DNA from: Promethearchaeota archaeon
GTDB taxonomy: Archaea; Asgardarchaeota; Thorarchaeia; Thorarchaeales; Thorarchaeaceae
Direction: 5' to 3'
Assembly (NCBI GenBank): GCA_014728035.1
Contig: WJMJ01000046.1
Location: 158,136 to 222,135, forward strand
Length of the DNA: 64,000 nucleotides
Both the position numbers and the translations under genes were made by a program. The notes beneath the pieces are model-generated. The model did not search any database. It had not been told where the DNA came from and saw only the letters and a list, made by a program, of their open reading frames with translations. The first letter of the stretch is position 1. Every line of letters begins with the position of its first letter. Shown here one piece after another: positions 32,810 to 50,641 of the stretch.

Positions 32810-33241
32810 ATTCACAAATCAATATTGTGAATGGCGCCTTATTTGTGAACCATCAAAAATAAAAAGACCCCATAACCCTCAAAAACTTATTTTCTGTAAT
32901 TTAAAAGCCGGTTACCATTGTGAACAAAGACACCCCTTTGTTTCCAGTGGAAAAACGGTTAAAGAGATATGATACAGTGTATAATGTATTCACAAAATAC
33001 ATAATACTGTGAAGACCTAACAGAATGGAGAAAAGCATTATTATTGAAAATAGAGCAATATAAGAGCCCCATTATAAATATTAATGATTAATATCGCATA
33101 TTTACTGATAAAAAGATAGAACTAGCCACAACATAGCTATGTACGAATTATCAGGCCAATACCCTCATACAGCGTATTGACATATTCACACTTATTAGCA
33201 AACAAATAGTAAGTCATTGTGAATGAAGAATTATTTGTGAA
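32810..33241. repeat. Cluster of TTGTGAA/TTCACAA motifs (7 exact copies)
   Basis: Copies at 32811, 32825, 32843, 32918, 32989, 33217, 33235. Confidence 0.7.
32931..32952 (-). promoter_or_regulatory. ORB (Orc1/Cdc6 origin recognition box)
   Basis: TTCCACTGGAAACAAAGGGGTG, matching the archaeal ORB inverted repeat plus G-string. Confidence 0.8.
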
Positions 33242-33910: not shown

Positions 33911-33924
33911 TACAAATAATACAC

Positions 33925-35241
33925 TTAACTTAGTGGAGAAGTTACCTCGATCAATTCTATATTCTGACGTTTTAGCTCCGAGAGTATCGGTTCGTAGATT
34001 TCTGGAAGAATTGGTCTATGAACACCAACAAGGTCAATTTTTCCTTCAAGTATCATTCTACTAGCAATAGCTACAGGTAGTGCTACTGTTCGAGACATTG
34101 AAGAATCACCGTTTGGTATACCATAATCAATCATAGTAGAGGTAATCAATTCTTTTCGATTGTCATATCGTGCATGAAATTCATGATGCATGACAATCAT
34201 ATCCCTTTCACCTTTTGCATATTGAAGTTTCGCTTCAAAGAGATAACAAAGTGCATCTAAATTGGTGTCAACAGAAGAAGGAATCTCGAGTGTATCAAAG
34301 AGACCTAACCACTTGAAACGATGGATAACATCATCGTCTTGATCTAATCCAAGAGTATTTGCAGTCGCTTCAGTAACATCTCCATCAGAATGAACAAGTT
34401 CTTTCATCAAATCTAAGTAAGTCATGTCTTCAAACGAACGTTCTTCTAGAGAGAGTAGCCCGAGGTCAGAAATTTTTTTCAGTGTCTTGCACCAACCAAT
34501 GTTACGGAATGTACCCCGCAGCATTGTCTTGGTTTCAGGAATAGAATAGATGTCAATATACGAAAGGCTGTCTCGATTAGGATACCCTTCGAAAACACCC
34601 ATTCCAGGGACCTCCATTTCTTCGCAATTATCGAATAATTCAGATCCTGGAATTGTAACCTTTTTGCCATCCAGTAAAAATTGAGCATCGTTACGGCCAG
34701 CAAGTAGAACTCCTCTCGGACTCCATGATAATTTGTATCCAAAAGGATTGTTATTACAATCAGGTGCGGGAAGGCCTCCTGTAAATGAGGTAAACCGAAT
34801 TATTTCACCTCCATTGTTATGAACAGCATCGATAATCTTCATTGCACTCATGTGGTCAATTCCTGGATCGACACCACATTCATTTAATAAAAGAATTCGA
34901 GCATTTCGAGCGGCTTCATCCAGTGCTTGCATTTCATCAGAGATGTAAGAAGTGGTGCAAAAGTGCTTCTTATGTTTGATAGCAACCTTTGCAGCTTTTA
35001 CATGAAAGGTATAAGGGAGTAAGGAACAAACCAAATCCACTTGACCTGTAAGCTTATCAAGAAGGTCATCATCTGTCTTAATGTTAAAGGCAATAGATTC
35101 TGCATTTTCCAAACCCTTGATTAACTGGTCTGCTTTTTCCTTAGTACGACTTGCAACAATAACATGAAATCCGTGTTCAGAAAGATACTGGACATAAGGT
35201 CTTGCAACAAGTCCCGCACCCAGGCACAATATGTTCTTCAT
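33925..35241 (-). CDS. Saccharopine dehydrogenase (glutamate-forming, Lys9/SDH type)
   Basis: LGAGLVA, SLLPY..H, TTSY, ECGVDPGIDHMSA, GYKLSWSPRG, RGTFR. Confidence 0.93.
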   Translation of the reverse strand: MKNILCLGAGLVARPYVQYLSEHGFHVIVASRTKEKADQLIKGLENAESIAFNIKTDDDLLDKLTGQVDLVCSLLPYTFHVKAAKVAIKHKKHFCTTSYISDEMQALDEAARNARILLLNECGVDPGIDHMSAMKIIDAVHNNGGEIIRFTSFTGGLPAPDCNNNPFGYKLSWSPRGVLLAGRNDAQFLLDGKKVTIPGSELFDNCEEMEVPGMGVFEGYPNRDSLSYIDIYSIPETKTMLRGTFRNIGWCKTLKKISDLGLLSLEERSFEDMTYLDLMKELVHSDGDVTEATANTLGLDQDDDVIHRFKWLGLFDTLEIPSSVDTNLDALCYLFEAKLQYAKGERDMIVMHHEFHARYDNRKELITSTMIDYGIPNGDSSMSRTVALPVAIASRMILEGKIDLVGVHRPILPEIYEPILSELKRQNIELIEVTSPLS

Positions 35242-35243
35242 AA

Positions 35244-36578
35244 TTAATTCTCCTCAGTTCTAAGATATTCTTTGAGATATTCATATTGAGGTGTAAGTTC
35301 ACCTCTATAAACAATAATGGCATCTTTTAATTCACGACACAAGACGAGTTGGTCAAATGATTCTGTCAAGAAATTTGTTTCCGCCAAGGTAGGGATGAAA
35401 CGTAACAGACTATTACTAAAGGAGGTGGAGGATTCTCGTGGTAATTCACAAGGTAAATTGTCCACAGCCATTACAACAGGCCCATTTCCAGAAATACCAA
35501 TTTTTGATTTTGTTTCATCTATGAGATATGTGAAAGCTGGTTTATCAGGTTTGGTTGTTATCACAGTGAATTCTATTGCGCCTTCTACATCACATGATAT
35601 ATCGCCAACTACCCGAAGTTTTCGTGAAGTGTTATTCCAATGTTGCTGAATAAAATCAGTGGACACTAGACGAGGGTATTCATCAGTCCAGTAAATACAG
35701 TTCATAAGAACTGTAAGATGAGGGATATATCTTTCAAAGACTCCACGATATTTCTTTGAACCAAATTGATAGTAATGCGATAGATCAAATTCAGCTGTTT
35801 CATCAATAGGTTCAACCATATGTTCCTCTTTGAAGACACACTTGTATAACACGTTTTCATTGTCGGATTCCAAATCAAGCAACTGATCAGGTTCTATTCG
35901 AACGTGAGGAAGTATATCAAAAAGTTCCTGTGCACCCTTTGATACATTACCATATCCAGCAAAACCGACAACTAGCGGTCTAAGAAGATCAGGAAGTCCT
36001 AAGGAAGAAATTCGTTCACCCAAAGATACGAATTCATCTTTCAAGCGTTCAAGTGTACGACATTCCAGAGTTGTTTTCATGCCTTTGAAGGGATTGGGTT
36101 CAAGGCATTCATATTCTAAACGTTTCCCCAACACTCTAAGAGTGTCAGACATACCAGCAAAACCAGCCCAGTTTCCAAAGTAAATGAGTCGACGTCCAGA
36201 ATCATCCACAACACATTCGTAGTCAATAAGGGTAGAGCCAGAATCGATAATCTTTTGCAGCATTGGCATATTATAGTCCTGGCCTTTTATTGTATGACTG
36301 AAGAAGAGATAGACTTTATCGCGCTCGAAAAAGTCGTTTGGCATCTCTTTGACTCCAAGAATTATTGAAGCTTCACTTCCATGAAGTTCCTCAATTTGTG
36401 CGTTTGCTTCTAGAAATTCTTCGTGACTAAAAGCACGTTGATCACTAGGTTCGACAAGAAAGTCCAATTTCCTTTCTGAAACCAACTTTGCGACATGAAT
36501 TGGTACAACAGGTACCCGGGTCTCAAAGGGTTTTTCTTCTTTTCTCAGACCAAAAATATTCAAGATTTGGGCCTCCAA
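35244..36578 (-). CDS. Lysine-ketoglutarate reductase (LKR domain of AASS)
   Basis: E.R.P, LGVKE, FFSHTIKGQ.YNM, IDYE, GYGNVSKGA, NCIYW...PRL, DISCD, VDNLPCELP. Confidence 0.9.
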   Translation of the reverse strand: MEAQILNIFGLRKEEKPFETRVPVVPIHVAKLVSERKLDFLVEPSDQRAFSHEEFLEANAQIEELHGSEASIILGVKEMPNDFFERDKVYLFFSHTIKGQDYNMPMLQKIIDSGSTLIDYECVVDDSGRRLIYFGNWAGFAGMSDTLRVLGKRLEYECLEPNPFKGMKTTLECRTLERLKDEFVSLGERISSLGLPDLLRPLVVGFAGYGNVSKGAQELFDILPHVRIEPDQLLDLESDNENVLYKCVFKEEHMVEPIDETAEFDLSHYYQFGSKKYRGVFERYIPHLTVLMNCIYWTDEYPRLVSTDFIQQHWNNTSRKLRVVGDISCDVEGAIEFTVITTKPDKPAFTYLIDETKSKIGISGNGPVVMAVDNLPCELPRESSTSFSNSLLRFIPTLAETNFLTESFDQLVLCRELKDAIIVYRGELTPQYEYLKEYLRTEEN

Positions 36579-36679
36579 TATGCCATTATTTCGACAAGCG
36601 CGTTGAAAATTACATACGCATTAAGCTTTCCGTTTAGGAGTAATACAAAGTCTGAAAATAGTACACATGTTCCAATAAT

Positions 36680-36979
36680 ATGAGTATCACAATGTATAGC
36701 TATCTATTCTTGTATGATTGTAAACGAGCCAGGCAAACAAACGCAAGAAGAGTGGCATTCACAAAGGAGATCTACGGTTATTCATATTCATGGAAGACCA
36801 AGTCAGGGTTAAAACAAAAACGGAAGCAGGGATTGCTTGATCAATATGAAGGGGTAGAAGCAGTTTCAGATTCAGCAATTTTGGTACCCGAAGATTACTA
36901 TGGGATTTTTGAAAAACTGTTTCAGGAATATAATGATATCATGAATCTTCGGATATTCAGAGTAACGGAAGAAGTTTAG
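36680..36979 (+). CDS. Small basic protein with Cas2/VapD-like signature, origin-adjacent
   Basis: YLFLYD first strand, F..EIYGY, GLL, DSAILVP; no cas genes nearby. Confidence 0.55.
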   Translation: MSITMYSYLFLYDCKRARQTNARRVAFTKEIYGYSYSWKTKSGLKQKRKQGLLDQYEGVEAVSDSAILVPEDYYGIFEKLFQEYNDIMNLRIFRVTEEV

Positions 36980-37251
36980 AACACGTGTTCCAAATAATCA
37001 GAGTGTAGGAGGACCACACCCCCTCATTTCCACTAGAATAAGTAAAAATGGAGGTCAGCTAAAAAGAAATCTATAATTGTTGATAAAAATGGAGATAAAT
37101 TGAAAATGTACTAAAGTATATTTATACTTTTGGATAATTAATCTTAGCACGATCTTTATTCTTTCTACAGGAAATAAAGGGGTGAATTGTATTTTAGAAC
37201 ATGTGGTCTAAATTCGTATTAATCGTATTACATATTAGAACACGTGTTCTA
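36977..37251. other. Probable chromosomal replication origin (oriC)
   Basis: Inverted ORBs at 37017-37038(-) TTCTAGTGGAAATGAGGGGGTG and 37163-37184(+) TTCTACAGGAAATAAAGGGGTG around an AT-rich ~120-bp core. The + strand A/T bias appears to switch here. Confidence 0.8.
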
Positions 37252-37332
37252 ATTAGGTTTCACCGGAAGACTGATACACTTTATTACCGGGAGGAACACA
37301 TCTCAAGAAATATCTCGATCGGAGGCTCAAAA

Positions 37333-39225
37333 TTGACAAAACCAAAGGAGTTACTTGAAGATTCAGAAGGAATAAAGAAACTTCTGTTAGCAAACGAGGC
37401 AATCGCTAGAGGAGTTGTGGAAGCCGGAGTACGATTGGTTGCATTATATCCCGGCACTCCTAGTAGTGAGATTGGAAATAATCTAACATTTATGGCTCCT
37501 CATATTCCAAATTTCTATTTTGAATTTAGTACAAATGAGAAGGTTGCTCTAGAAGTTGCTGGAGCGGCTGCAGTGGCTGGTGTACGTTCTATGATGGTCT
37601 GTAAAGGGCCTGGTCTTAATGTTGCGGCTGACCCATTTTTTTCATTGGCATATGTTGGTGTTCGTGGTGGAATGGTTATCGTTGTTGCTGATGATCCCAG
37701 TATGTGGAGTTCTCAAAATGAGAATGATAGTCGTTACTATGCGTTGATGGGAAATATGCCTATGATAGAACCTGCTGATCCAGCTGAAGCAAAGTCCTTA
37801 CTTCTCGAAGCCTACAAACTATCAGAGGAATTGGAGCTCCCTGTTCTTTTCAGAACCACTACAAGGGTAAATCATACAAGAGCTCCGGTTGAATTTGGAA
37901 AGATTCCAAAACTGTCTGATAAGGTTGAATTTGACAAAGAACCTTATCGATTTGTTCCAATTCCAGCTGTAGCTAGAAAGAGACATCCTTGGCTTCTTGA
38001 CCAAATCGCAAAAGCAAAAGAGATTGCTGAAGAATCATCCTTGAATTTCGTAGAGGGGTCTGGCGAACTAGGAATTATTACTTCAGGTGTTTCTTTCAAT
38101 TACGTCCGCGAAGCATTGGAGTCGCTTGAGTTGGAAGCTGAGATACTAAAGCTAGGAATTACCCATCCTGTTCCGGAAAATATGATCAAGTCATTTCTAA
38201 CTAAACACAAACGTGTTGTAATTGTAGAAGAACTCGAACCGTTTCTTGAAACTCATAGTCGCCGCATCGCACAACGCGATAACATTATGGTTGAAATTCT
38301 AGGCAAAGAGCAAGGTTACTTCTCTCGAACTTTTGAATATAGTCCTCGAATTGTCATTGAAGCTCTTGCAAAGATTATTAGTCGTAATACAAGTATTAAT
38401 TGGGACGATATTGAAGAAAAGGAGAAATCTCTTCCTGATTTACCTCCACGCCCACCCTTACTCTGTGCGGGATGTCCACATCGTGCTACATACTATGCTA
38501 TACGAACCGCTACTAGAGGTAAAGCAATCTATCCTTCTGATATTGGATGCTATACTCTTAGTATTGCTCCACCTTTGGAAACCGCAGATATTCTCTTTGA
38601 TATGGGTTCATCTATTACTACTGCTTGTGGTTTATCTCAAGTGACAGACCAAGATGTAGTCTGTACCATAGGTGATAGTACCTTCTTTGCATCAGGTCTT
38701 CCAGGTGTAGTAAATGCTGTGTACAATCATCATCCTATCAGTATTGTAGTATTAGATAATCGTACTACCGCAATGACGGGCCATCAACCTCATCCTGGTA
38801 CCGGTGTTACTGGAATGCAAGAAAAAGTACCTCCCTCTGATATATCTGAGGTGTGCACAGGTCTCGGAGTTAAATATGTGAAAGTTATTGATCCCTTGGA
38901 GTCAGTTGTTGACCTTGTAAAAGAAATTAGAGAAATGGTTTCTTGGACTAAGGAGAACAGAGCACCTGCGGTGCTAGTTTCAAAAGCACCTTGTGCACTA
39001 TTAACCGCGTCAGAACGTCGACGTACAGGTGAATATCCTCCAATATATTTTGTAGATTCTGATGTCTGTAACTCTTGCAAAAGATGTCTTAATCGACTAT
39101 CTTGTCCTGCCATGTATTTGGACCCCGAAACTGATAAAGCTGTAATAGATGAAACGCTGTGTAATTTGTGTGGGACTTGTGTTTCGGTTTGTCCCCAAGG
39201 AGCAATAAAACAGGAGGAAGAATAA
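37333..39225 (+). CDS. iorA: Indolepyruvate:ferredoxin oxidoreductase alpha
   Basis: NEAIARG, YPGTPSSE, NEKVALE, LCAGCPHR, SDIGC, GDSTF, two C-terminal 4Fe-4S motifs. TTG start after GGAGG. Confidence 0.95.
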   Translation: MTKPKELLEDSEGIKKLLLANEAIARGVVEAGVRLVALYPGTPSSEIGNNLTFMAPHIPNFYFEFSTNEKVALEVAGAAAVAGVRSMMVCKGPGLNVAADPFFSLAYVGVRGGMVIVVADDPSMWSSQNENDSRYYALMGNMPMIEPADPAEAKSLLLEAYKLSEELELPVLFRTTTRVNHTRAPVEFGKIPKLSDKVEFDKEPYRFVPIPAVARKRHPWLLDQIAKAKEIAEESSLNFVEGSGELGIITSGVSFNYVREALESLELEAEILKLGITHPVPENMIKSFLTKHKRVVIVEELEPFLETHSRRIAQRDNIMVEILGKEQGYFSRTFEYSPRIVIEALAKIISRNTSINWDDIEEKEKSLPDLPPRPPLLCAGCPHRATYYAIRTATRGKAIYPSDIGCYTLSIAPPLETADILFDMGSSITTACGLSQVTDQDVVCTIGDSTFFASGLPGVVNAVYNHHPISIVVLDNRTTAMTGHQPHPGTGVTGMQEKVPPSDISEVCTGLGVKYVKVIDPLESVVDLVKEIREMVSWTKENRAPAVLVSKAPCALLTASERRRTGEYPPIYFVDSDVCNSCKRCLNRLSCPAMYLDPETDKAVIDETLCNLCGTCVSVCPQGAIKQEEE

Positions 39226-39226
39226 G

Positions 39227-39847
39227 ATGTCGGGTGATACACGTAATACAATTAATATCGTGATTTCTGGAGTTGGCGGTCAAGGAGTTTTGACTCTTGC
39301 TGAAATCTTAGCAAAGACTGCACTAGCCAGTTCTCACAATGTACGAGTTGGAGAAATTCATGGAATGGCCCAAAGAGGGGGACATGTTGTATGTACTGTT
39401 CGCATTGGTCCAAATGCACATGGTCCTATTGTGGATCCGGGAACTGCAGATCTCCTAGTTGGATTCGAACCTGTTGAAACTTTGAGGGAGATTTCTTCCA
39501 TTAAACAAGATGGATATGTTCTACTGAGTACCCATGTCCAATATCCAGTATCTGTTTCAATGGGCAAATCAGAATATCCCTCTCAAAAGGAAATTCTTTC
39601 GGAGCTCAATAAGTTTACACCAAACATCTTTGAGATTGATGCTATGAAATTTGCAAAAAAGGCAGGAAGTAGTAGGTCTCTCAACATGGTTATGTTGGGA
39701 GCTATAATTGGAACTGGACTTACTCCTTTGACGAAACAAGCAGCTATAGAATCGGTAACATCTGCATTTTCGAAACGGTTTGAACCTATTAATAGTAGAG
39801 CTGTTGAATTGGGATTTGAGGAAATATCGAAGCAGTTCACTAAGTGA
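39227..39847 (+). CDS. iorB: Indolepyruvate:ferredoxin oxidoreductase beta
   Basis: GVGGQG, EIHGMAQRGG, NMVMLG. Confidence 0.93.
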   Translation: MSGDTRNTINIVISGVGGQGVLTLAEILAKTALASSHNVRVGEIHGMAQRGGHVVCTVRIGPNAHGPIVDPGTADLLVGFEPVETLREISSIKQDGYVLLSTHVQYPVSVSMGKSEYPSQKEILSELNKFTPNIFEIDAMKFAKKAGSSRSLNMVMLGAIIGTGLTPLTKQAAIESVTSAFSKRFEPINSRAVELGFEEISKQFTK

Positions 39848-39870
39848 AATTATTAGTTGTAATACACATA

Positions 39871-42225
39871 TTAGGGGCAGACATGTCTAGCAGCTGCAAC
39901 GGCAATCTGCCCTATTGATATTCCTCCATCACCCGGTGGAACTCGTTTGTGAATCAAAGGTTTGTATCCATTTTCTTCTACTATTTGGATGATTGTAGAA
40001 GTGATGATTCTGTTTAGAGCAACACCTCCTGAGAAACCTATGTATTCAGTGTCATTTTCTTCAGATGCATTTATTGCTATTTGTGCAAGTCCTTCTCCTA
40101 TAGTTTTTTGAGCAGAATAGGCAAGATTCTCAATTGCGGATCCTTCTTGTTTCTTCTCAATTATTTCTTGAAACATGGTTCTTATATCGAGTGTTTTCCC
40201 TCCATTTTTGAATGCTGGACCTAATCGCAAGTCGCTCTCTTTAGCAGCTGCTTCTAGTTTCATAGGACACTCTCCGTCGTAAGTGTTTTCAGAACATATT
40301 CCCAAAGCTAATGCTACTGCATCCAAATATCTTCCCACACTGGAACTCGATATTGAATTGATTCTTTTAGAAATTACTTTTTGTAATAATTGTATTACAT
40401 CAACTGAAGATTCTTGATTTGGTGCAACTTTTACCTTATGCGTCAACTCATGAATTTTTTCAGCATCCATATTATTTGCTAGTAATCCAATGAATGGTCT
40501 AATTGGATATCTCGCTGAGAGGTCGCCTCCAGGATATATCACCTGATCTACATTTCCATATTTCTTGAAATCTTTCAAACCACCGACCAGTACCTCTCCT
40601 CCCCACGCACTTCCATCAGAACCGTATCCATATCCGTCAGCAGTAATACAAGTAATATTTGTATTAATATCTAATCTGTGGTCAACTATAATTGAGGCTA
40701 AGTGCGCATGATGATGTTGAACTTTATACAGCGGAACTCTATGATGTTTGCTAAAATCTGAAGCAAATTCTGAACTCAAGAATTGTGGGTGTAGGTCACA
40801 TGCTATTCCCTCTATTTTGCTAACACCCAAAATATTCATCAAATTATTCAATGAAGCTTCCAAAAATTTTAGACTCTCTATTTTATCCGTGTCTCCAATA
40901 TGCTGTGTTGAATAAATAGCACCTGCTTTCAAAACAGCACCTGTTGCTTTTTCTTCAGGACCTACCGAGAGAAGAGAGAATCCATCCCATTCCTTAGACA
41001 ATAAAATTGGTTCAGGTACATATCCTCTAGCTCTGCGAATGAATACTGGTTGTTCCTTGGTTACGAACTTCAAAACTGAGTCATCAACGCGTTGATGAAT
41101 TTGTCTGTTATGTGTCAGTACGTAATCTGCAATATTTTTCAATTCTGACTTAATTCTTTCAGGATCAATATACATTGGAATCGATGTAGGATTTGCGCTT
41201 GTCATAACAAAAGCTGGCTCATCTGAATTTTGGAACATCAAATAATGCATTGGTGAATATGGCAACATTACTCCTATTGTATTGAGTTCTGGTGCAATCA
41301 GATTTAATGACTCTATTGGTATTACATTTATTGTTCGTAATACATCATAGTCTTCTTTCAATCTAATTAGGACTATTGGTCTTTTCCATGATCTAAGAAG
41401 TTGGGCTTCATGTATGCTAACATCACAAATTCTTTGCAGTGTTTCTAAATCGCGAATCATTATTGCAAAAGGTCTTTGATATCTTTTCTTTCTCTCTCGC
41501 AGCTTTTCTATTGGTTTAGGTGTTGATGTTTTTGTTACGAGATGTGTTCCTGAAATCCCTTGTATTGCAACAATCAATCCTTTATCAAGTATTTTCATTG
41601 TTCTCTCAATAAGATTTGTTTTACTAGTCTTTCCATCAATGAGTGAAGTTAGTGTATATCTTGGTCCACATTTTTCACAGGCAGTTGTTTGTGCATGATA
41701 TCTTCTATCCATTGGGTTTGTATAACCTTTATTACACGTATTACAAAGAGGGAATTCTCTCATTGTTGTATTAGGTCTATCGTATGGTAGGTCTTCAATT
41801 GTTGAATAACGAGGACCACATGCTGCACAAGAGGTGAATGGATAACTTCTCCACCTTGAATTTGGATCAGTCAAGTCCGAAACACATTGAGGACAAATTG
41901 CAATATCTGGAGGTATTTCTGGAATTGCACTGGGCGTCTTTTTCTCGGATGATTTTATTATTTCAAAATCTGTGTATCTTTCTTTGCTTTTAACCCACTC
42001 CAATTGAAATGATTCTATTCGTGATATCGATGGTGGATTATTTTTAATTTCCTGTGCTAGCTTTTGTATTTTGGACCTATTTCCCTGAACTGAAATTCTT
42101 ACTCCTGCATCCCCAAGATTGAGAACGTAACCCTTCAATCCCAGTTTCTTTGCAAATCTATACACAAAAGGTCTGAATCCAACTCCTTGGACAACCCCTG
42201 TTATATGAATCTCAGCTTCAATCAA
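39871..42225 (-). CDS. hypF: Hydrogenase maturation carbamoyltransferase
   Basis: GVVQGVGFRPFV, two Zn fingers, MTSAN, QHHHAH, PPGDGG. Confidence 0.96.
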   Translation of the reverse strand: MIEAEIHITGVVQGVGFRPFVYRFAKKLGLKGYVLNLGDAGVRISVQGNRSKIQKLAQEIKNNPPSISRIESFQLEWVKSKERYTDFEIIKSSEKKTPSAIPEIPPDIAICPQCVSDLTDPNSRWRSYPFTSCAACGPRYSTIEDLPYDRPNTTMREFPLCNTCNKGYTNPMDRRYHAQTTACEKCGPRYTLTSLIDGKTSKTNLIERTMKILDKGLIVAIQGISGTHLVTKTSTPKPIEKLRERKKRYQRPFAIMIRDLETLQRICDVSIHEAQLLRSWKRPIVLIRLKEDYDVLRTINVIPIESLNLIAPELNTIGVMLPYSPMHYLMFQNSDEPAFVMTSANPTSIPMYIDPERIKSELKNIADYVLTHNRQIHQRVDDSVLKFVTKEQPVFIRRARGYVPEPILLSKEWDGFSLLSVGPEEKATGAVLKAGAIYSTQHIGDTDKIESLKFLEASLNNLMNILGVSKIEGIACDLHPQFLSSEFASDFSKHHRVPLYKVQHHHAHLASIIVDHRLDINTNITCITADGYGYGSDGSAWGGEVLVGGLKDFKKYGNVDQVIYPGGDLSARYPIRPFIGLLANNMDAEKIHELTHKVKVAPNQESSVDVIQLLQKVISKRINSISSSSVGRYLDAVALALGICSENTYDGECPMKLEAAAKESDLRLGPAFKNGGKTLDIRTMFQEIIEKKQEGSAIENLAYSAQKTIGEGLAQIAINASEENDTEYIGFSGGVALNRIITSTIIQIVEENGYKPLIHKRVPPGDGGISIGQIAVAAARHVCP

Positions 42226-42352
42226 TTTTCAGTCACCTGTTTATCGTATAGAATGAAAAAATATTAACTCGATGAAGTAACAAATAATGTATTGCAAATA
42301 ATACTAGTAATACATTTTTCTATATGTCTTCTTAAGCACTAGTCTGTACATA

Positions 42353-42781
42353 TTGATGATAAAAGTGCGGTCCAATAGTGATCAACAAGACTCGATATAT
42401 TATGAACCTAAGACAACTCCTTCTATTCTTGCATCGATTCCAGATTGTTTGCGGATGATTCTTATGGATTCAGTTGAGAAATCTAAGGTTTCAAGAAAAT
42501 CTATTCTGGTTTCAAGTAATAGTTTAGCCAATCGGTTCATTCTGGATCGCTGGGATATAAGACCGTCTCAAAGAAGACGATATCGCAATCTATTTTCTAA
42601 GATTCGAAAACGATGCCGTAAGATATTCCAGTATCATTTAGCCCGAGGTCGTATTGAATGGACTGATAAATCAGATTCTTATCTACTAGGAGTTTTCAAA
42701 TTCGATGAGGTTCGGGGAAATTTAATTCTTGGATTTGTTCCCATCAGTAAAGACCAAGAATGGACAATGAAACCAAAATAG
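42353..42781 (+). CDS. Basic hypothetical protein, possible DNA-binding
   Basis: 142-aa ORF, Arg/Lys-rich helix followed by beta strands; no family recognised. Confidence 0.6.
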   Translation: MMIKVRSNSDQQDSIYYEPKTTPSILASIPDCLRMILMDSVEKSKVSRKSILVSSNSLANRFILDRWDIRPSQRRRYRNLFSKIRKRCRKIFQYHLARGRIEWTDKSDSYLLGVFKFDEVRGNLILGFVPISKDQEWTMKPK

Positions 42782-42983
42782 TGCTGTAATACAAGTAATA
42801 TTACTAATACTATGCTCTTCTCATTTTCAAATATGTTTATCAGGAATCATGTATACGAAAGTGTATCCGTATAGAAACCCTGAACGCCGTATTATTTAAA
42901 ACGCCTAATATCTCTTTAAAGTGAAATATGGGCACTAATAGGCCTTATTTAGATGAGCTGTTTTCTTCAATGAGCTGAACAAA

Positions 42984-43526
42984 ATGAAAAGCAATAAAGA
43001 CACCTTTGACAAGAAAGAAATTTTGAATCTTGCAAAAAATGCACGTCAGGTTTTAAGTGAACCAATTTTACAGGTTCTACTCAAAGAATCAACTTTGACT
43101 GAAACTCAGTTAGAAACATTATTGATTGATTTGCTTGTAGAAGATAATCTTGGAAGTCATATCCCATATGACGAAAAAGCATCTTTAAGATCCGTAGATA
43201 GAAAGAAACGTAAAGGCGTTTCGAGAGGTTCTTTTAATCGTACATTGCGCCAAGCAAGAAAGAATGTGACCAAGAGCATCTATACAATGTTGTTACTTGC
43301 TTATCTTGGTTTATTTGAAATCTCTATATTTCGTCCTTTTGAGGAGGTCGCAGGAAAAATTGCCAATTATAGGAATATTCGTTCTGTTTTATCGGGTAAA
43401 CAGGATTTGAGCAAAGAAGAGGTTGAGAGCTTTCGAACCTCTGAAAAGATGATTCAAGATGCTATTCAAGAATTAATTTCACCACTTTCTTTAAAGAGCG
43501 AGCTCTCTAAACGAAAATCAGATTAA
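42984..43526 (+). CDS. Tfx/sigma-region-4-like HTH protein
   Basis: STLTETQLETL...GVSRGSFNRTLRQARKNV.KSIYT pattern. Confidence 0.6.
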   Translation: MKSNKDTFDKKEILNLAKNARQVLSEPILQVLLKESTLTETQLETLLIDLLVEDNLGSHIPYDEKASLRSVDRKKRKGVSRGSFNRTLRQARKNVTKSIYTMLLLAYLGLFEISIFRPFEEVAGKIANYRNIRSVLSGKQDLSKEEVESFRTSEKMIQDAIQELISPLSLKSELSKRKSD

Positions 43527-43955
43527 TGTAATACAATAAATACAACTATTAGAATTCAAAATTTATTTGGATGTGCTTTTGACAGTATACTTACTTTATT
43601 GATCTGTTATTCCATTAAATAGAAAAAGAATAAACGGCACGAGCATGTCATGACATTCCATTGAATCGGTTTATTCGATTCATCGTAGTCATCTTTGGAG
43701 GTATTGCGTGAGGAGATAGAGATGAAAACGACAGGCCGAACAATGGACTTGAAAATCCATATGCCGAACCAATGTCATAATCATGACATACTCATTCTAG
43801 TATGTGAACATAGTTATACATAGTTCTAATCTTAGAACGGGGTTTTTTTCATGATTTTTTACAGGAATTGACAGTAAGTTACTGTATTACAATTAATAGT
43901 GCTATCACACAAATAAGATTTAAGAAAAATCTATACTTCTATATCCTGGTGTTAT

Positions 43956-45170
43956 TTGTTTTTGTCAAAAGATGATTTGGAACGCTTACTGAAATATGCA
44001 AGGAATCATTCAAATAGCCTCCTCGAAAAGAAGCAGGCTCAGTATCTCTCTCAGTGTATCGGAGACAGACGTGAGAAAGACCTACTTGATAGTCTGCTTG
44101 CAATAGAAGAATCATCTGGTTGGAAACAGTCAGTTAGGCTATTAGAGTCATCATTATCTTGTGAATATATGGTTCCTCCTGGTTTTGGAAAAGAAAAAAT
44201 AAATCTAGAAACTTTGAAAGCTCGTGAAGTAATTTTTTCTCTGTTTGGAAGTCGCGGTTTGGAGCCCGTCGGTGTAGAAATAGATACTCTACTTTCTTTT
44301 TGCATGAAATGTGAAAGTTATATTGAAGCAAAGAATGCCTTCTATGATTTTGTTTTAAGGACTTCTTTAAATCAGATTAAATCAGGCAACTCACTTTTTT
44401 TTCAATATGATCTATCTTTGATTCCTGAACTGACGGAAGTAGAGAAAATAAGAACGGAGAAACTCAATGAAATCGTAATCCCTGTTAATGATGAAATCTA
44501 TGATATACGCAGTTTATGGTATACAGAATATGGTCGACAAGCGTTAGTTGACTCTTGTATACGTGGTTTTGTTGTTGACAAAGATGAATTTGAAAATATA
44601 ATACTTGTATTACAAACAATACTGCAAAAGGAGGTAAAAATCACAATTGAAGAATCTGAAAAAACAATCCCTAAAACACCTCCTCGTTTATATCCTCTAT
44701 ATTCAAACTTGTTAGATGCACTAATCTCACACGATATATTTCAGCTTCAAGAATTAGGAAGTGAACACTGTACGAACACTCTTGTTTACCATACAAGATT
44801 ATCAAGTTCTGCTTACAAACGTTTACCAACTTCTTTTACGTATAGTCGTTTCTTAGAGCTCATTAAAGCACATGTTAGAGTACGATCTCTCTTTTCAATA
44901 TCTCTCCTTGAAGAATTAATACACTCCAAAATACAAAGGATAGCAGCTCCTGCTATTAGTGCTTTAGGAAATATTTACCATCCTTCTTCGGTGTCAGTTT
45001 TAGCTGATTTTATTTGCGAAAGCCGAAACTCTACTTTAGTTTCACAGGCTATTAGAGCATTGGAGACCGTACGTAATCGAACAACTGAAACGGACCACAT
45101 TCTCCTACATAGGATGAAACAGTCGGATTGTATTAATTCTTCAAAACTGAGGGTATTATTGAAAAGGTAA
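43956..45170 (+). CDS. Hypothetical helical protein with C-terminal HEAT-like repeats
   Basis: AISALGNI...SV..L and AIRALE repeats. Confidence 0.6.
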   Translation: MFLSKDDLERLLKYARNHSNSLLEKKQAQYLSQCIGDRREKDLLDSLLAIEESSGWKQSVRLLESSLSCEYMVPPGFGKEKINLETLKAREVIFSLFGSRGLEPVGVEIDTLLSFCMKCESYIEAKNAFYDFVLRTSLNQIKSGNSLFFQYDLSLIPELTEVEKIRTEKLNEIVIPVNDEIYDIRSLWYTEYGRQALVDSCIRGFVVDKDEFENIILVLQTILQKEVKITIEESEKTIPKTPPRLYPLYSNLLDALISHDIFQLQELGSEHCTNTLVYHTRLSSSAYKRLPTSFTYSRFLELIKAHVRVRSLFSISLLEELIHSKIQRIAAPAISALGNIYHPSSVSVLADFICESRNSTLVSQAIRALETVRNRTTETDHILLHRMKQSDCINSSKLRVLLKR

Positions 45171-45246
45171 TATTTGTATTATTAATAATATTTGTAATAC
45201 ATAATCACGACACATATAAATTTGAATCTTGTCCGACTCCTAGATT

Positions 45247-46641
45247 ATGACATCAGTATCGCCTAACTCGTCCAGTGTTATTGACTCGTTTTTCAATCCA
45301 CGAAATGTTGCTTTAATTGGTGCTTCTTCTGATTATAGGAAATTAGGGAATTCAATTCTTATGAATTTGCTAGCTTCTGAAATCAACGTATATCCTATTA
45401 CACGTAATAGAGATCGTGTATTAGGTGTAAAAGCATATTCTAGCTTAGATGATTTACCTGAGCCAGTTGATTTAGTAATTATTGCTATCAGCGCTAAGTA
45501 TTGTCCAGGTCTTATGCCCGATGTGCGTAGAGCGGGATCAAAGAATGCTGTAATTATTTCAGGTGGTTTTAGCGAAACTGGAGAAAATGGCGAAGCATTA
45601 GAAAAGGCTCTTGTGGAATCAGCAGCAAGTGAAGGTGTACGATTTATTGGTCCAAACTGTGTAGGTGTGTCAAATAGTCGTCTATTTAATGGTACTTTTA
45701 CAATGATGCCAGAACGAGGAAATATCGCATTCATTTCTCAAAGCGGTGCGTTAGGTGGGATGTTGATATATACTACCCGTCAAAAACGAATTGGAATAAG
45801 TAAATTTGCTAGTATTGGTAATGCGGCAGATGTTAGCTTTGTTGAAATTTTAGATTACTTCAAAGAAGATGATCGTAGCAATGTAATTGCTGTTTATGTA
45901 GAAGGTGTTGAAAATGGTCGAGCATTCTATGAATCATTAAGCCAAGCTGCAAGGAAGAAACCAGTTGTTGTATTAAAGGGTGGGCGAAGTGAAGTAGGCA
46001 GTAGAGCTACTCTTTCACATACCGGTTCGCTTGCTGGTTCAACTCAAGTTTTTGATGGCATGATTCGTCAAAGTGGCTGTGTAACAGCTCCAACTCTTGA
46101 CACTCTGCTTGAAATTGCAAAACTTTTTGATTATCAACCACTTCCTTCTGGTCGTAATATTGGTATTATTAGTAATACAGGTGGTGCAGGAGTTCTTGCT
46201 ACCGATGCATCAGCAAATTTTGGATTGCGAATTCCTTCTTTGTCGGAAACAACTCGAAAAGAGCTAAGGCAAGTTTTGTCTCCTATGGCATCCATTGAAA
46301 ATCCTATTGATGTTGTTGCTAGTGGTGGTCGACGTGAATACCGAATTACAACCGAATTGATGTTAAGAGACCCAAACATCGATATGCTTCTTGTGATTTG
46401 TGCTGTTCCAACTTTTGCAGGTATGACTCAAACTGAACATGCTGCAGGTACTTTAGAAGGTGTAAGAATATCCGAAACCGATAAACCCGTTCTGGGTGTT
46501 TGGCTAGCTGGTGATGTTGGAAAACCAGGAAAAGATCTTCTTGAGATGAATCGCATTCCCTGCTATGATGATCCTTTTACTGCTGCCATCTGCATGGCAC
46601 GAGTCCTGGATTATGTTGATTTCAGGTCAAATCATTTATAG
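45247..46641 (+). CDS. acdA: Acyl-CoA synthetase (NDP-forming) alpha subunit
   Basis: VALIGAS, SGGFSE, GPNCVG, SQSGA, SHTGSLAG, NPID. Confidence 0.9.
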   Translation: MTSVSPNSSSVIDSFFNPRNVALIGASSDYRKLGNSILMNLLASEINVYPITRNRDRVLGVKAYSSLDDLPEPVDLVIIAISAKYCPGLMPDVRRAGSKNAVIISGGFSETGENGEALEKALVESAASEGVRFIGPNCVGVSNSRLFNGTFTMMPERGNIAFISQSGALGGMLIYTTRQKRIGISKFASIGNAADVSFVEILDYFKEDDRSNVIAVYVEGVENGRAFYESLSQAARKKPVVVLKGGRSEVGSRATLSHTGSLAGSTQVFDGMIRQSGCVTAPTLDTLLEIAKLFDYQPLPSGRNIGIISNTGGAGVLATDASANFGLRIPSLSETTRKELRQVLSPMASIENPIDVVASGGRREYRITTELMLRDPNIDMLLVICAVPTFAGMTQTEHAAGTLEGVRISETDKPVLGVWLAGDVGKPGKDLLEMNRIPCYDDPFTAAICMARVLDYVDFRSNHL

Positions 46642-46880
46642 ATGGGATTCTTTCTATTTATTGTAATACATTTATTACGGAAGCGTATTCAACAAATCTC
46701 TTTATAATTGAAGCGAGTCATAGCTGGTTGTAAAACTCATTTTGAAATCTTTATTTCTATTTAGTTTTAATTCAATATTGATCTAGTGTGTCTACTATCA
46801 GCAGCTTCTTTTGTGTTCAATTGTATGGAATGACTCTATGTAATCGAATCACTATATTAGTTGTAATACATCAAATACAG

Positions 46881-47198
46881 TTAATCGAAGTATTTTTCAG
46901 CAATTTTAGGATAGTGTTCAACAATAGCTTCCCGAAGTCTTCTTTCAACCCACATAGATAGATTAATTGCATACTCTTCTCTAACTGCTTGAAGACATTC
47001 TCGTAGATCTGTAGCAACACTAAATGATATAATTGGGCTTCTTCTTTCACTGTTTGGTACTGCTTCAGTAGCTTTTTCTGTCTTTGGCTCTTTTTTTGGT
47101 TTTTTCGGAGTTTTTCGGATAGTCGTTTCCTCAGAAACTTCCTTTTCCACCTCTTCTTCTTTGTCAGTTTCTTTTCGATATTTTCCAAGAAGACTCAA
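46881..47198 (-). CDS. Ribbon-helix-helix protein with charged, disordered N-terminal tail
   Basis: IISFSV strand, TDLRECLQAVREEY helix, INLS turn, MWVERRLREAI helix; abuts the AAA+ gene. Confidence 0.65.
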   Translation of the reverse strand: MSLLGKYRKETDKEEEVEKEVSEETTIRKTPKKPKKEPKTEKATEAVPNSERRSPIISFSVATDLRECLQAVREEYAINLSMWVERRLREAIVEHYPKIAEKYFD

Positions 47199-48173
47199 TT
47201 ATCTAACCTCCTTTAGAATTGATTCATACGCATTTGATACTAACTCTGCAATTTTTGAGTCAACTTTTGCATTTTTTGATTGTTTAAATCCTTCAGCAGC
47301 AACTTGTTGACAACCTCTAGCGAGCATTCGAAGGTCTCTTGGATTTCCTCCCGCAGCATCATTCAGAATTTTAATTGCATCCTCAGTAAAGGGATATATT
47401 GAAAATTCATCTGAATTGAATGTATCAATTTTCCCTTGAGCGTATGCTATTCTTCTACCGATGAATTCGAGAGCTTGATCGAAATTAAGAGGCGGGACAT
47501 CAAGTGGCTCTGTTCGATCAGCTATCTGTGGAAGATACGCCATCATAGCATTCCAATATTCTCTTGTCCCTGACATTATCAAAGTCACTACCGGTTCATC
47601 AAGAGCTCCTCCAAACTCATCTTTCATTTCTTCGCTTGGGAGGTCAGCCAAATATCTCAATTTATGAAATGATGCCTCTTGATTATCTGCAACATCTTCA
47701 ATGAATAATGCAGTTCTACATTGCTCTTCTACATATCGTCGAACACATTCATCTGCCACAGCTTCGATAATTTGACTTGATTCCCAAGATCGTCGATACT
47801 TTATTTTTAGAGAATCTGCAATAGCTGCAGACATCTGTTTCTCATATAGTCCTGTCATTCCAACATATCCAGTTACGAATTTATTTCCTCTTCTGTCTGC
47901 CAATGTTGGAAGGTCTCTAAGGGCTAAGAGCATGAGGGTGCTTTTACCAGAACCAACAGGACCTCTCAAAAAAATATGTCTTTCATTGGTGAGTACTAAA
48001 TCAACAATCGAATCTAAAAATGCAGGATGCTCCACATAGAGTCTGGATTCTGGCATTTTGAATCCACGAAATGGTGAAAATCTAGCTCCAATGTGTTCTT
48101 CCCAGGCCTGTAATGTTTCTTTTCTTGTATTGAAATGCCTGATCAGAGCTGATTCATGAATTGCAATTGTCAT
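47199..48173 (-). CDS. ExeA/AAA_22-like AAA+ ATPase
   Basis: N-terminal SPF, GPVGSGKST, Walker B LFIED, LIMSG, DR finger, PFTEDAI..AGGNPRDL. Confidence 0.8.
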   Translation of the reverse strand: MTIAIHESALIRHFNTRKETLQAWEEHIGARFSPFRGFKMPESRLYVEHPAFLDSIVDLVLTNERHIFLRGPVGSGKSTLMLLALRDLPTLADRRGNKFVTGYVGMTGLYEKQMSAAIADSLKIKYRRSWESSQIIEAVADECVRRYVEEQCRTALFIEDVADNQEASFHKLRYLADLPSEEMKDEFGGALDEPVVTLIMSGTREYWNAMMAYLPQIADRTEPLDVPPLNFDQALEFIGRRIAYAQGKIDTFNSDEFSIYPFTEDAIKILNDAAGGNPRDLRMLARGCQQVAAEGFKQSKNAKVDSKIAELVSNAYESILKEVR

Positions 48174-48351
48174 ATTGTATTACATATATTAGTCGTATAA
48201 AAACATTGACCCAGTATTCTCTTACTGAAAAATGCATAGATGTCTTTGTATTATGTGTTTTTTTTGTTAGCAGTCGCAATCTTTTTCAAGCAACAGTTAT
48301 GCAAAAGAATGCAATCAACATACTGGTTTATCTCATCCAGAGGTTATAAAA

Positions 48352-48630
48352 ATGCAAAACGAACATCTGAAAAACGTACTGAACTCGCTTATGATAATCA
48401 GCTTTCTTATCTTCGGAGGGCTTTCCGCTATACTTCTTATTACAGATGCCCCTCTGGTTGGCGCTACCGTTGCTTTGCCATTTGCCTTTCTGTATATTTC
48501 CATGATGACTCTTGTCGTCACAGCACAGATATCAGATCATCCATCCCAGACTGGAAGGTTCCTACGTGACTGGTTACTAATGGTTTCCTTTGGGATTGTT
48601 TTCTGCGCATTGGTACTTGCTTTTGCATAA
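48352..48630 (+). CDS. Small three-TM membrane protein
   Basis: Three hydrophobic segments. Confidence 0.6.
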   Translation: MQNEHLKNVLNSLMIISFLIFGGLSAILLITDAPLVGATVALPFAFLYISMMTLVVTAQISDHPSQTGRFLRDWLLMVSFGIVFCALVLAFA

Positions 48631-48701
48631 GCCAGTGTTCTCTATCACAATAGTTTTAGCAGTTCATACAATGCTCTATCTATCATCTTCCTGCCTTTGA
48701 A

Positions 48702-49337
48702 GTGATTGAAATGAGTCAGATTCTTCCAGGTACAAAAACCACTCGGATGGAACTTTTGCGATTGAAAAATCGGAAACGACTGGCCGAACGTGGTCACAAC
48801 CTTTTGAAAGAAAAACGTGACTCTCTTATCATGGAATTTTTCAATGCTATTGCTGAAATCAAAGAAGCTAGAGAGCAAGTAGAAGAAGCTCTTGAAATTG
48901 CATTTTCTGCGTTGACTCAAGCGAAGATGATAATGGGCCCTTCTCGTGTGGTTGAGTTTGCACAAGCTAGCAAAACAAAAGCTGATCTGAGTATTAGTAC
49001 TAGGTCAATGATGGGTGTACGGGTACCAGTTCTCTCATTGGATCATGAAGAACCAGAACTACCATATTCACTTCCTGATTCGTCTGTAAAACTTGATACT
49101 ATGAGTACTAAGTTTTGCGAAGCACTGAAAGCTATCATACGATTAGCTGAAGTGGAATCTACTGTTAAACGACTTGCTCTTGAAATTGAGCGAACCAAAC
49201 GAAGAGTTTCTGCTCTTGAAAATGTCGTCATTCCTAGACTCGATAACACCGTCCGTTTCGTTAAGCTTGCTCTTGAAGAAAGAGAACGTGAAGATTTCTT
49301 CAGAATACGTCTCATAAGAGACCGAATTACAGACTGA
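48702..49337 (+). CDS. atpD: A/V-type ATP synthase subunit D
   Basis: TRMELL.LK, GHNLLKEKRD, TKRRVSALE.V.IP. Confidence 0.93.
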   Translation: MIEMSQILPGTKTTRMELLRLKNRKRLAERGHNLLKEKRDSLIMEFFNAIAEIKEAREQVEEALEIAFSALTQAKMIMGPSRVVEFAQASKTKADLSISTRSMMGVRVPVLSLDHEEPELPYSLPDSSVKLDTMSTKFCEALKAIIRLAEVESTVKRLALEIERTKRRVSALENVVIPRLDNTVRFVKLALEEREREDFFRIRLIRDRITD

Positions 49338-49364
49338 TGAACTGTAATACATGTATTGCTTAAG

Positions 49365-49748
49365 CTATTTGTGTCTGAGTTTCAGAATAGCTGCAGCGAG
49401 GTCTCCTTCTGTTTCTTTCAACGCCTCTGTTGCTTCCTCTATTGAAACATTAGTCTGACTAGCCACAAGAGCAGCATCTTCTTTGGGTATTTCTACTTCT
49501 TTTTTGATCGGTGCTGCATCATCCGATACTCCGTCTGTAGTTAATCCTCTTTCTGTTTTTTCGCCTGATATTTGAAATGATTCGCTGCCAGCTTGTTTCA
49601 CCAGAGCTACTTGTGGTTTAGAAATTAACCATTCTTTGTCTTCGAATCTTATAATGACTTCAGTAACACCACTGATGTCTTTCTGTTCTATTCCCATTTT
49701 CTTCATCATTCGAGCGAGTTGCTTTGGTGACATTCCTCTAAATCCCAT
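49365..49748 (-). CDS. nac: Nascent polypeptide-associated complex protein
   Basis: MMKKMGI, EVIIR, C-terminal UBA LVASQ..GDLAAAI. Confidence 0.92.
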   Translation of the reverse strand: MGFRGMSPKQLARMMKKMGIEQKDISGVTEVIIRFEDKEWLISKPQVALVKQAGSESFQISGEKTERGLTTDGVSDDAAPIKKEVEIPKEDAALVASQTNVSIEEATEALKETEGDLAAAILKLRHK

Positions 49749-49807
49749 GGTCTAACCTCATTCTAATGTTCCTGTATTGACTGAGAACAGACTGGATAAA
49801 ATAATTA

Positions 49808-50641
49808 CTATGTATCAATCGGACAAAGAAAGATATCATATACAAAATGTCCGATGTTTGGTGCATATTGTTTAATCTCTCTCACTTCTATATCTGCATT
49901 ATGTGCTTTCTCAAGAGATATTGTATTAATCGTATTACAAATGGAATCTATTTCATGAATCGGGTTTGATTGGTGCATATGAATTATTCCACCTTGTGGC
50001 ACCAGTGAATCGACTGCGACTGGAAGATATGAAATTGTATTATGTAGATATCCCATTACTACCCGATTAAAAGACTTCAATGGTGAAGCAATTCTACAAT
50101 CCCCATTTATTATAGTCATATCATCTTCCAGTTTGTTTAGTTCTGTATTGATTTTTAGAAAATGAAACGCATCTTGATTTAGCTCGATTGCAGTTACATT
50201 TGCCCCTGCTCTTTTGGCAATATGTAATGCAAATTGTCCTACACATGCAAACATATCCAAAACAGTTTCTTCAGATTGTGTGATTGTTCCCATTCGTATT
50301 CTTTCAGTCATATTACCTCCCGAAAATGTTAATCTCAAAGGATCAATTTGGAACTTTACTCCTGCTTCAGTATGTGTAGTAATTGTATTACAACTTCCTG
50401 CAATCACTTTGTATTGCGGTTTTCTCATTTGACCATTTGTTGGTCCAACCTTCATCGCAATAGTCTTCGCTTTTTTTTCAAATGCAAGAATTTCTTCAGC
50501 AATAATTTTAGCATAAGGGGCCACAGAATCATTAAGATGTAGCAGGATGACATGTCCTACCACATGATAACCTGATGGTAGAATTGCTGTGTTTGGAATT
50601 ATCCCTTGCAGTCTTCTTTCAAGATATGTTCTAAGACGCAT
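49808..50641 (-). CDS. Trm5/TYW2-family tRNA SAM-dependent transferase
   Basis: FSGGN..ER, DMFACVGQF, ELN, RVVMG, KQYAP. Confidence 0.85.
   Translation of the reverse strand: MRLRTYLERRLQGIIPNTAILPSGYHVVGHVILLHLNDSVAPYAKIIAEEILAFEKKAKTIAMKVGPTNGQMRKPQYKVIAGSCNTITTHTEAGVKFQIDPLRLTFSGGNMTERIRMGTITQSEETVLDMFACVGQFALHIAKRAGANVTAIELNQDAFHFLKINTELNKLEDDMTIINGDCRIASPLKSFNRVVMGYLHNTISYLPVAVDSLVPQGGIIHMHQSNPIHEIDSICNTINTISLEKAHNADIEVREIKQYAPNIGHFVYDIFLCPIDT

Follow-up and report, generated by a model that had tools for sequence, protein, structure and literature searches.

A probable chromosome segregation module of Asgard archaea with an initiator-clade AAA+ ATPase, a small tailed adaptor and origin-proximal repeats

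Partition systems are classed by their motor, which is ParA, ParM or TubZ. In the type Ib cassettes (ParF-ParG of TP228 and delta-omega of pSM19035) and in archaeal SegA-SegB-segS, the NTPase gene is followed by a gene for a small protein consisting of a tail plus an RHH (ribbon-helix-helix) domain, and short repeats in tandem lie at the operon. The site bound by SegB is a triple repeat that lies upstream of segAB near an origin, and the N-terminal region of SegB interacts with SegA (PMC12139799). For the Asgard archaea, a 2024 review on chromosome segregation points only to homologues of ParA and ParB (PMC7617429). We have studied a pair of genes in a stretch of 64,000 nucleotides from a Promethearchaeota archaeon, a Thorarchaeon to judge from the names of homologues (contig WJMJ01000046.1, positions 158,136 to 222,135; the whole stretch is termed the window), encoding an AAA+ ATPase and a small protein that we call the adaptor. 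The ATPase, the adaptor and a private set of repeats lie beside the predicted replication origin, in the slot that a sister lineage fills with ParA and ParB, and we therefore conclude that this Asgard module probably segregates chromosomes using a type of motor not known for that role.

The features of the locus are collected in Table 1. The TTG start codon of the adaptor gene directly follows the stop codon of the ATPase gene, and several orthologues have ATG there; the adaptor is translationally coupled to the ATPase. A first-pass annotation of the sequence had described two abutting genes, for a 324-amino-acid AAA+ ATPase and a 105-amino-acid protein, both of which are confirmed here, and had proposed an origin-proximal segregation or organisation system with an AAA+ motor; every genomic prediction of that proposal that was testable here came out in its favor. 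As in type I partition, a gene for a tailed RHH-type protein comes right after the NTPase gene, and repeats are clustered at the operon near the origin (with no extended field detected in Odinarchaeia, family f33 and genome G037). The ATPase is, however, not of the deviant Walker A ParA/MinD type (KGGxGK, AAA_31/CbiA), and its AAA+ P-loop fold is neither actin-like nor tubulin-like. The motor of the type Ib and SegAB systems is a deviant-Walker ParA, whereas here we find an AAA+ protein with an arginine finger and a sensor-2, and a field of sites that spans 10-15 kb and runs through genes. The module thus resembles a type Ib or SegAB cassette, but its AAA+ motor places it outside that class; it fits the tripartite partition design and is new at the level of the motor class. 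Literature searches, with most subscription journals outside their coverage, returned no published description of it.

Table 1. Features of the module and of the origin region (window positions unless a locus is named)
Feature	Position	Strand	Remarks
Predicted oriC core	37017..37184	.	inverted ORBs 37017-37038 and 37163-37184 around an AT-rich spacer
Further full ORB	32931..32952	-	the assembly's only strict-consensus ORB; upstream of winged-helix gene 33251-33910
Field of GTAWTAC arrays, centromere-like	33907..50392	.	densest 36640-50392
Gene for 180-amino-acid origin-linked protein	42984..43526	+	slot marker, possible accessory
Tandem 9-bp units just past the adaptor stop codon	46853..46870	.	
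Adaptor open reading frame, 105 amino acids	46881..47198	-	N-terminal peptide, E/K/P-rich tail, C-terminal RHH (likely) and extra helix
Conserved N-terminal peptide S-L-L-G-K-Y-R-K	47169..47198	-	candidate ATPase-docking motif
ATPase open reading frame, 324 amino acids	47199..48173	-	initiator-clade AAA+; ExeA-like sequence, Orc1/Cdc6-TnsC-MuB fold
Operator-like array, three 9-bp units over the operon start	48176..48201	.	similar array conserved upstream of most Thorarchaeota orthologues examined
Bathyarchaeia-labelled cassette	L097:2981-5021; L098:571-2603; L094		RHH-like gene, ATPase, KaiC-like protein

The predicted oriC core consists of two inverted origin recognition boxes (ORBs) around a spacer of 124 bp that is 77% AT. 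It lies 9.7 kb from the gene pair, as expected from the origin proximity claimed in the first-pass annotation. The position of the ORBs is the same in relatives, where they are separated from the ATPase gene by 10-15 kb. The distance is 1-3 kb in Freyarchaeia-type genomes, ~4 kb in Hermodarchaeia and ~17 kb in G138 (f23); in all lineages where one contig holds both, the conserved pair is found within about 1-17 kb of ORBs. The complete Odinarchaeia genome has just two forward-pattern ORB matches, and these are 5.4 kb from the ATPase gene, beside cdc6-1 and DP1. The cumulative GC skew on contig C9, which carries the window, was uninformative. The cdc6 gene within the window (12139-13371) is the cdc6-2 paralogue, while cdc6-1 lies with DP1 outside it (G000:C9:130833-133651), about 60-63 kb from oriC.

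The most direct genomic evidence for a role in partition is that the module shares its slot with ParA and ParB. The 180-amino-acid neighbor adjoins the pair in every lineage examined and also occurs without it (in Bathyarchaeia and Atabeyarchaeia), and we followed it across the phylum to loci lacking the pair. In the three Atabeyarchaeia genomes (f13), where the pair is found in 0/3, genes for ParA and ParB lie between the ORBs and the 180-amino-acid gene. Their assignment is clear from Pfam, with ParA matching AAA_31 at 180-187 bits and ParB matching both ParB_N and HTH_ParB. The order of genes is DP1, cdc6-1, winged-helix gene, ORBs, small gene, ParA, ParB, 180-amino-acid gene and CBS-HTH gene. 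In Freyarchaeia, the sister group of Atabeyarchaeia (PMC11291895), it is DP1, cdc6-1, winged-helix gene, ORB, Cas2-like gene, AAA+ ATPase, adaptor, 180-amino-acid gene, hypF and CBS-HTH gene. The module has in common with chromosomal ParA-ParB-parS systems an origin-proximal cluster of sites and, in Atabeyarchaeia, the gene slot, but it lacks a ParB CTPase domain, a helix-turn-helix (HTH) and ParA, and its sites are 9-bp periodic arrays rather than 16-bp palindromes.

Among 400 genomes, ParB-like matches occur in 9/135 of those in families with the module, against 3/3 Atabeyarchaeia and 28/31 members of family f5, both of which are without it. The window genome (98% complete, 8.5% contamination) gave no match to ParB_N and contains no true ParA, the best ParA-family score being 72 bits. 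The deviant-Walker proteins listed for it look to be of the MinD, Mrp or ArsA type and have no SegB-like neighbor, in line with the absence of ParAB and SegAB that the first-pass annotation had raised as a check. At the origin loci of Bathyarchaeia neither the pair nor ParA was found within 8 kb of the 180-amino-acid gene. In the Atabeyarchaeia origin loci (L179-L181) no obvious cluster of 16-bp parS palindromes is seen within 20 kb; L179 has an IS605/TnpB-like remnant separating ParB from the 180-amino-acid gene. The ParB-like protein of family f5 (e.g., G069:C1:766881 and G070:C1:866356) is conserved and has about 364 amino acids.

We turn now to the repeats. The palindrome TGTAWTACA is found 2 bp before the ATPase start (48176-48184) and 10 bp after the adaptor stop (46862-46870), where it had been noted previously. 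There are 14 copies in the window compared with 0.67 expected from shuffles; 12 fall within a single 15-kb stretch, and other contigs have no more than 2 per 15 kb. Over the whole genome the count does not exceed that of a reversed control, and it is only the clustering that is informative. The perfect 9-mer is not, however, the functional unit. The repeat is a GTAWTAC core with degenerate neighbors at a period of 9 bp, such that counts of spacings peak at 9 (146) and 18 (63) over a background of about 2-21. The clustering of the proposed site stands, but 9-bp units arrayed in tandem, rather than the single 9-mer first taken as the site, make up the functional unit. One 15-kb stretch contains 23 GTAWTAC cores compared with at most 7 elsewhere in the genome, making it the strongest cluster among 64 comparable palindromes. 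Of the 18 near-perfect tandem pairs in the genome, 16 are inside the window and 14 lie between 33,907 and 49,923.

Similar behavior is seen in relatives, where 7/8 perfect 9-mers of the single-contig genome G385 and 15/22 of those in G001 lie at the module, and G020 and G008 have GTAWTAC clusters like those of G385 and G001. About half of the sites are intergenic, although intergenic DNA makes up just 11-21% of the zone. The coding sequences of the field are enriched too, with 52 sites against 16 expected from synonymous codon resampling, compared with 37 against 31 in genes outside it, and the 9-bp period is kept. These site statistics cover eight related genomes, and the figures are not independent tests.

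Other lineages have repeats of their own: GTAWTAC with period 9 is found in Thorarchaeota and f23, TCAWTGA with period 9 in Hermodarchaeia, and GATATC with period 13 in Freyarchaeia-type genomes. In a complete Freyarchaeia genome of 3.58 Mb, 9/10 GATATC pairs are at the module. The perfect TCAWTGA pairs listed for four Hermodarchaeia all fall at the module; the single 9-mer is common throughout the genome (304 copies), and only tandem pairs mark the locus. A blind scan for repeats detected a field at 24/31 module loci, and gave background values (3 or less) at 25 loci that carry the 180-amino-acid gene without the pair. The GATATC of the Freyarchaeia-type fields (L031-L032, L044, L047-L049, L057) contains no GATC and is a known methyltransferase target (EcoRV type).

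The fold of the ATPase sets it apart from ParA. The AlphaFold2 model (predicted local distance difference test score 91, predicted template modelling score 0.86) comprises an AAA+ module, a two-helix initiator-specific insertion (residues 111-150) and a lid. The chain ends at the lid helices, with neither a winged helix nor a C-terminal extension, and the Walker B sequence is LFIED (ED in place of DE), as the first-pass annotation had read it. The Walker A sequence is GPVGSGKST. Across 78 aligned ATPase sequences there is no variation at G76, K77 or the arginine finger R220, and next to none at the sensor-2 R279. A basic loop (residues 125-132) inside the initiator-specific insertion is almost invariant among Thorarchaeota; in Orc1 and TnsC, DNA is bound by the corresponding region. 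Odinarchaeia and Hermodarchaeia ATPases have the canonical DE in Walker B, and those of Thorarchaeota, f23 and Freyarchaeia-type genomes have ED or DD.

In structural comparisons the ATPase scores highest against Cdc6/Orc1 (Z = 19.5, 18.5 and 18.3), followed by TnsC (17.4) and MuB (17.1), which together with the ExeA-like sequence agrees with the ExeA/TnsC/Cdc6 clade named in the first-pass annotation. A single-sequence search of the PDB gave P-loop matches only. In Pfam the ATPase reaches AAA_22, AAA_16 and ORC-CDC6-like below threshold, with no AAA_31 among the matches, and it did not match TIGR02928. A profile search of 1.8 billion representatives returned a tight clade of ATPases (E < 1e-70), then a gap to ExeA-like sequences at ~1e-20. 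The latter, the ExeA/GspA, MshM and PEP-CTERM ATPases (COG3267, AAA_22, TIGR03015), are thus the closest outside sequence family (E about 1e-20) and share an N-terminal motif, but the module ATPase has no membrane anchor, C-terminal extension or secretion operon, and falls far below the family cut-off (22.5 bits against the 324.5 of TIGR03015). In the tree, bacterial ExeA-like rows form a branch of their own (100/100) and Cdc6 rows another (100/100); the module ATPases form one archaeal group (85/87), apart from the long-branched Hermodarchaeia rows, which the tree leaves unplaced. MuB and TnsC share the fold (Z = 17.1-17.4), an AAA+ module with no sequence-reading domain, but the module has neither transposase nor transposon ends, its partner is a 105-amino-acid RHH protein, and its ATPase is a core chromosomal gene with conserved synteny. 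Longer paralogues of 350-460 amino acids are found in other Asgard families (350-390 at L053-L055 and L191). We do not count these as members of the module, since there was no coupled RHH gene in the loci read.

Alignments divide the adaptor into three parts: ten conserved residues at the N terminus, a variable charged tail, and 55 conserved C-terminal residues that open with an alternating, strand-like stretch. The tail is rich in E, K and P as previously reported (57% of residues 11-52). The model has helices at 61-76, 80-95 and 97-103, and is of low confidence at 18-43. The C-terminal domain is likely to be an RHH, as had been claimed, judging mainly from orthologues: partners from other lineages match Pfam RHH_1 (E = 0.001 and 0.003) or Arc (E = 0.047). 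For the window protein alone the fold searches were weak. Foldseek with the monomer gave nothing significant (best E 6; the five weak rows included Arc and StnY), and the best Z in a VIA fold search was 3.8. The structural rows of lowest root-mean-square deviation include StnY as well as omega and SegB (2.1-2.5 Å), with Z of only ~3. The family profile weakly matches NikR and Rv0298, and an Atlas feature search gave RHH_10 at 0.87, which we treat only as a lead.

The conserved N-terminal peptide recurs in another setting. A Bathyarchaeia-labelled locus (L094, L097, L098) encodes an ATPase that is 41% identical to that of the window and belongs to the same branch (100/98). It is preceded by a tail-less RHH-like gene and followed by one for a KaiC-like ATPase, the N terminus of which bears three copies of the adaptor peptide. 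L094 and L097 have no GTAWTAC sites. The peptide stays with the ATPase while the protein that carries it changes, as expected for a docking motif, and the comparison suggests that it is a modular one. The cassette is possibly an instance of the motor reused for another cargo. Downstream of the KaiC-like gene are those for an exosortase-like membrane protein and glycosyltransferases. A predicted complex of the ATPase with adaptor residues 1-32 (with ATP and Mg) had a median score of 0.29, against a mark of 0.32, and is given no weight for or against the contact.

Most Thorarchaeota have the two genes side by side and in one copy, and five further Asgard groups have the pair as well, so that the conservation which the first-pass annotation had asked to be tested holds widely. 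The ATPase is encoded in 77/85 Thorarchaeota of the window genome's family and is present in the sister family. It is found also in 9/12 genomes of f23 (labelled Heimdall-/Gerdarchaeota by NCBI), 10/11 from two Freyarchaeia/Jordarchaeia families, 4/4 Odinarchaeia and 3/3 f33, with a small tailed gene directly downstream in every such module locus read. In Hermodarchaeia this locus encodes a divergent ATPase of 439 amino acids and a partner of the same kind. No copy of the ATPase was found in 135 genomes of f9 (probably Lokiarchaeia), nor in several other families. An apparent internal TAG in an f33 gene proved to be the normal stop, and a Thor-like match in G150 lies at a contig edge and is probably bin contamination. 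There are more distant pairs of an ATPase and a tail-RHH protein (L079:5001-6248; L080:2152-3350), one of which shares its contig with genes for E1, E2, ubiquitin-like proteins, gyrase and topoisomerase VI.

The reading we prefer, to which we assign a probability of roughly 0.68, is that the three parts form a system for chromosome partition (origin positioning) in which a MuB-like AAA+ motor stands in place of ParA. The steps of binding, stimulation and movement are envisaged as follows. Dimers of the adaptor would bind the 9-bp-periodic GTAWTAC arrays cooperatively, coating a centromere of 10-15 kb that reaches oriC, and through the array at the start codon the adaptor would repress its own operon; the position of that array suggests autorepression. 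The ATPase, having no sequence-reading winged helix, would bind ATP and oligomerize via its arginine finger, and in the ATP-bound form would use its basic initiator-specific loop to coat non-specific nucleoid DNA in the manner of MuB and TnsC. With ATP, MuB forms a coat on DNA from which a site-bound partner clears it locally (PMC3894238). The flexible tail of the adaptor would bring the N-terminal peptide to the ATPase and trigger hydrolysis and release. Tail-borne contacts with the ATPase have precedents in ParG, ParB and SegB (PMC12139799, PMC9178275), and partition ATPases stimulated by tails are known, as are RHH centromere binders (PMC9178275). The centromere would clear the ATPase around itself and so be drawn towards DNA that is still coated, moving new origins by a diffusion ratchet, a patterning logic that is common to ParA/ParB and MuB/MuA (PMC3894238).

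Several observations weigh against this reading. Two systems that occupy one slot need not do one job, and the comparison with ParAB comes from a single lineage, not a statistical series. An extended field was not detected at the Odinarchaeia, f33 and G037 loci (scores of 1-2), which have operon-adjacent sites only, and where it is present in the window the field contacts the ORBs, which also fits control of the origin. The core motif is similar to the box of the transcription factors aCcr. The catalytic Walker B glutamate is missing from the ATPases of Thorarchaeota, f23 and Freyarchaeia-type genomes, from which ATP hydrolysis may be slow or may need a partner, and this class of ATPase is not known to move DNA. 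Lastly, many Asgard genomes show neither system in our searches (f9, for example, has the module in 0/135 and ParB-like matches in 18/135), and the function may be dispensable or done otherwise.

The closest structural relatives of the ATPase raise the alternative that the module controls origin firing. The adaptor would mark the origin and load an Orc-like ATPase that blocks, sequesters or assists the loading of Orc1-1 and MCM, with no movement of DNA. Orc1/Cdc6 proteins share the initiator-specific helical insertion and the linkage to the origin, and are the best structural matches (Z = 17-19.5), but the module ATPase lacks the ORB-reading winged helix, has a variant Walker B and lies on a separate branch, and the genome has its own cdc6-1 and cdc6-2. 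Arrays do come within 31 bp of the right ORB (37216) and lie between the ORBs and the far ORB (33907), and the distance of cdc6-1 from oriC in this genome can be added to the case. Most of the field, however, is 2-13 kb to one side of oriC and centered on the operon rather than on an unwinding element, ParAB holds the slot in Atabeyarchaeia, and a close homologue of the ATPase with the same peptide is encoded at the Bathyarchaeia-labelled locus, which has no origin features. We therefore consider origin control unlikely.

Next comes a static organiser, in which the adaptor-coated field is a platform for loading or anchoring (of SMC, or to bridge the origin domain), which the ATPase builds or remodels with no ratchet. 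Bacterial ParB/parS also loads SMC, and SMC proteins are encoded in this genome; among the open reading frames of the window, none near the module was noted as smc or scp. The breadth of the field and its passage through genes would suit such a platform, as would the ability of MuB filaments to bundle DNA (PMC3894238), but an ATPase with a tail-borne activator has the anatomy of positioning systems, and we judge the static role to be improbable, placing it behind origin control. Partition, control of firing and static organisation are mutually compatible readings.

A role in transcription is very unlikely. The adaptor would be an RHH repressor of neighboring genes like aCcr or CdrS, and the ATPase its nucleotide-sensing partner. 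The motif resembles the box of aCcr1-3 and an array covers the operon start; aCcr1-3 and CdrS are RHH cell-cycle regulators that bind a similar 9-bp GTA-n-TAC palindrome. They are, however, stand-alone factors acting at dispersed promoters, whereas the module RHH protein is long-tailed, coupled to an ATPase and associated with one local field. The pattern of sites is unlike a promoter regulon: they occupy a single region instead of being spread over promoters genome-wide, many of them sit after stop codons or within genes, and the neighbors are housekeeping genes of unrelated function, which vary from one lineage to another. Least probable of all, and largely refuted by context, is that an accessory of secretion (ExeA/MshM or PEP-CTERM-type) or an ATPase of transposition (TnsC/IstB/MuB-type) is near the origin by chance, for which one may cite the JGI label "predicted ATPase ExeA" carried by homologues, the ExeA-like outside sequences, a VirB11-like gene 27 kb away in the window and the membrane and glycosyltransferase genes that the Bathyarchaeia homologue precedes, but which is opposed by the TIGR03015 score and separate bacterial branch given above, by the lack of a transmembrane helix (maximum hydropathy 1.09) or C-terminal extension, by a neighborhood of housekeeping genes with no transposase, by a single-copy gene with 74-83% identity across genera and stable synteny, and by the failure to find relatives among the viral contigs searched, so that the ATPase stands outside the characterised secretion and transposon families, membership of which the first-pass annotation had named as refuting its proposal.

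A few observations concern the neighborhood. Genes for cdc6-1 and DP1 adjoin the ORBs in the sister family, Odinarchaeia, Freyarchaeia, Hermodarchaeia and Atabeyarchaeia, and a small Cas2/VapD-like gene (36680-36979) and the winged-helix gene (33251-33910) accompany the ORBs in most lineages examined. The MCM gene of the window (4395-8036, reverse strand) has an apparent large intein-like insertion. The 180-amino-acid protein has 414 matches in GTDB species genomes, from several Asgard groups and Bathyarchaeia, belongs to no Pfam family, and was not found in the 135 f9 genomes searched. It was rejected as the likely binder of the field, as loci having it without the pair show no field. A 92-amino-acid membrane protein gene (48352-48630) was rejected as part of the module; it accompanies atpD, and none was found at the distant module loci.

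Rather more tentatively, and at somewhat less than even odds, the module may represent a new class of segregation system that is old in Asgard archaea. A peptide-tipped RHH adaptor on a lineage-specific centromere would pattern a nucleoid filament of an ORC/MuB-like AAA+ protein, interchangeably with ParABS; the docking peptide could be grafted onto other cargo such as the KaiC-like protein, and the ATPase would serve as a motor for positioning in general, a counterpart to the ParA/MinD family. Since partition systems are classed by motor, an initiator-clade AAA+ motor would, if the partition reading is true, constitute a further class. For at least six Asgard groups the module offers a motor, an adaptor, a candidate docking peptide and a candidate centromere, and is small enough for reconstitution in vitro, while the lineage-specific fields provide a sequence marker of the origin region in genomes that have it. 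If the partition reading is correct, patterning of the MuB/TnsC kind can serve chromosome inheritance, and does so via an ORC-related protein in a lineage that stands close to eukaryotic ancestry.

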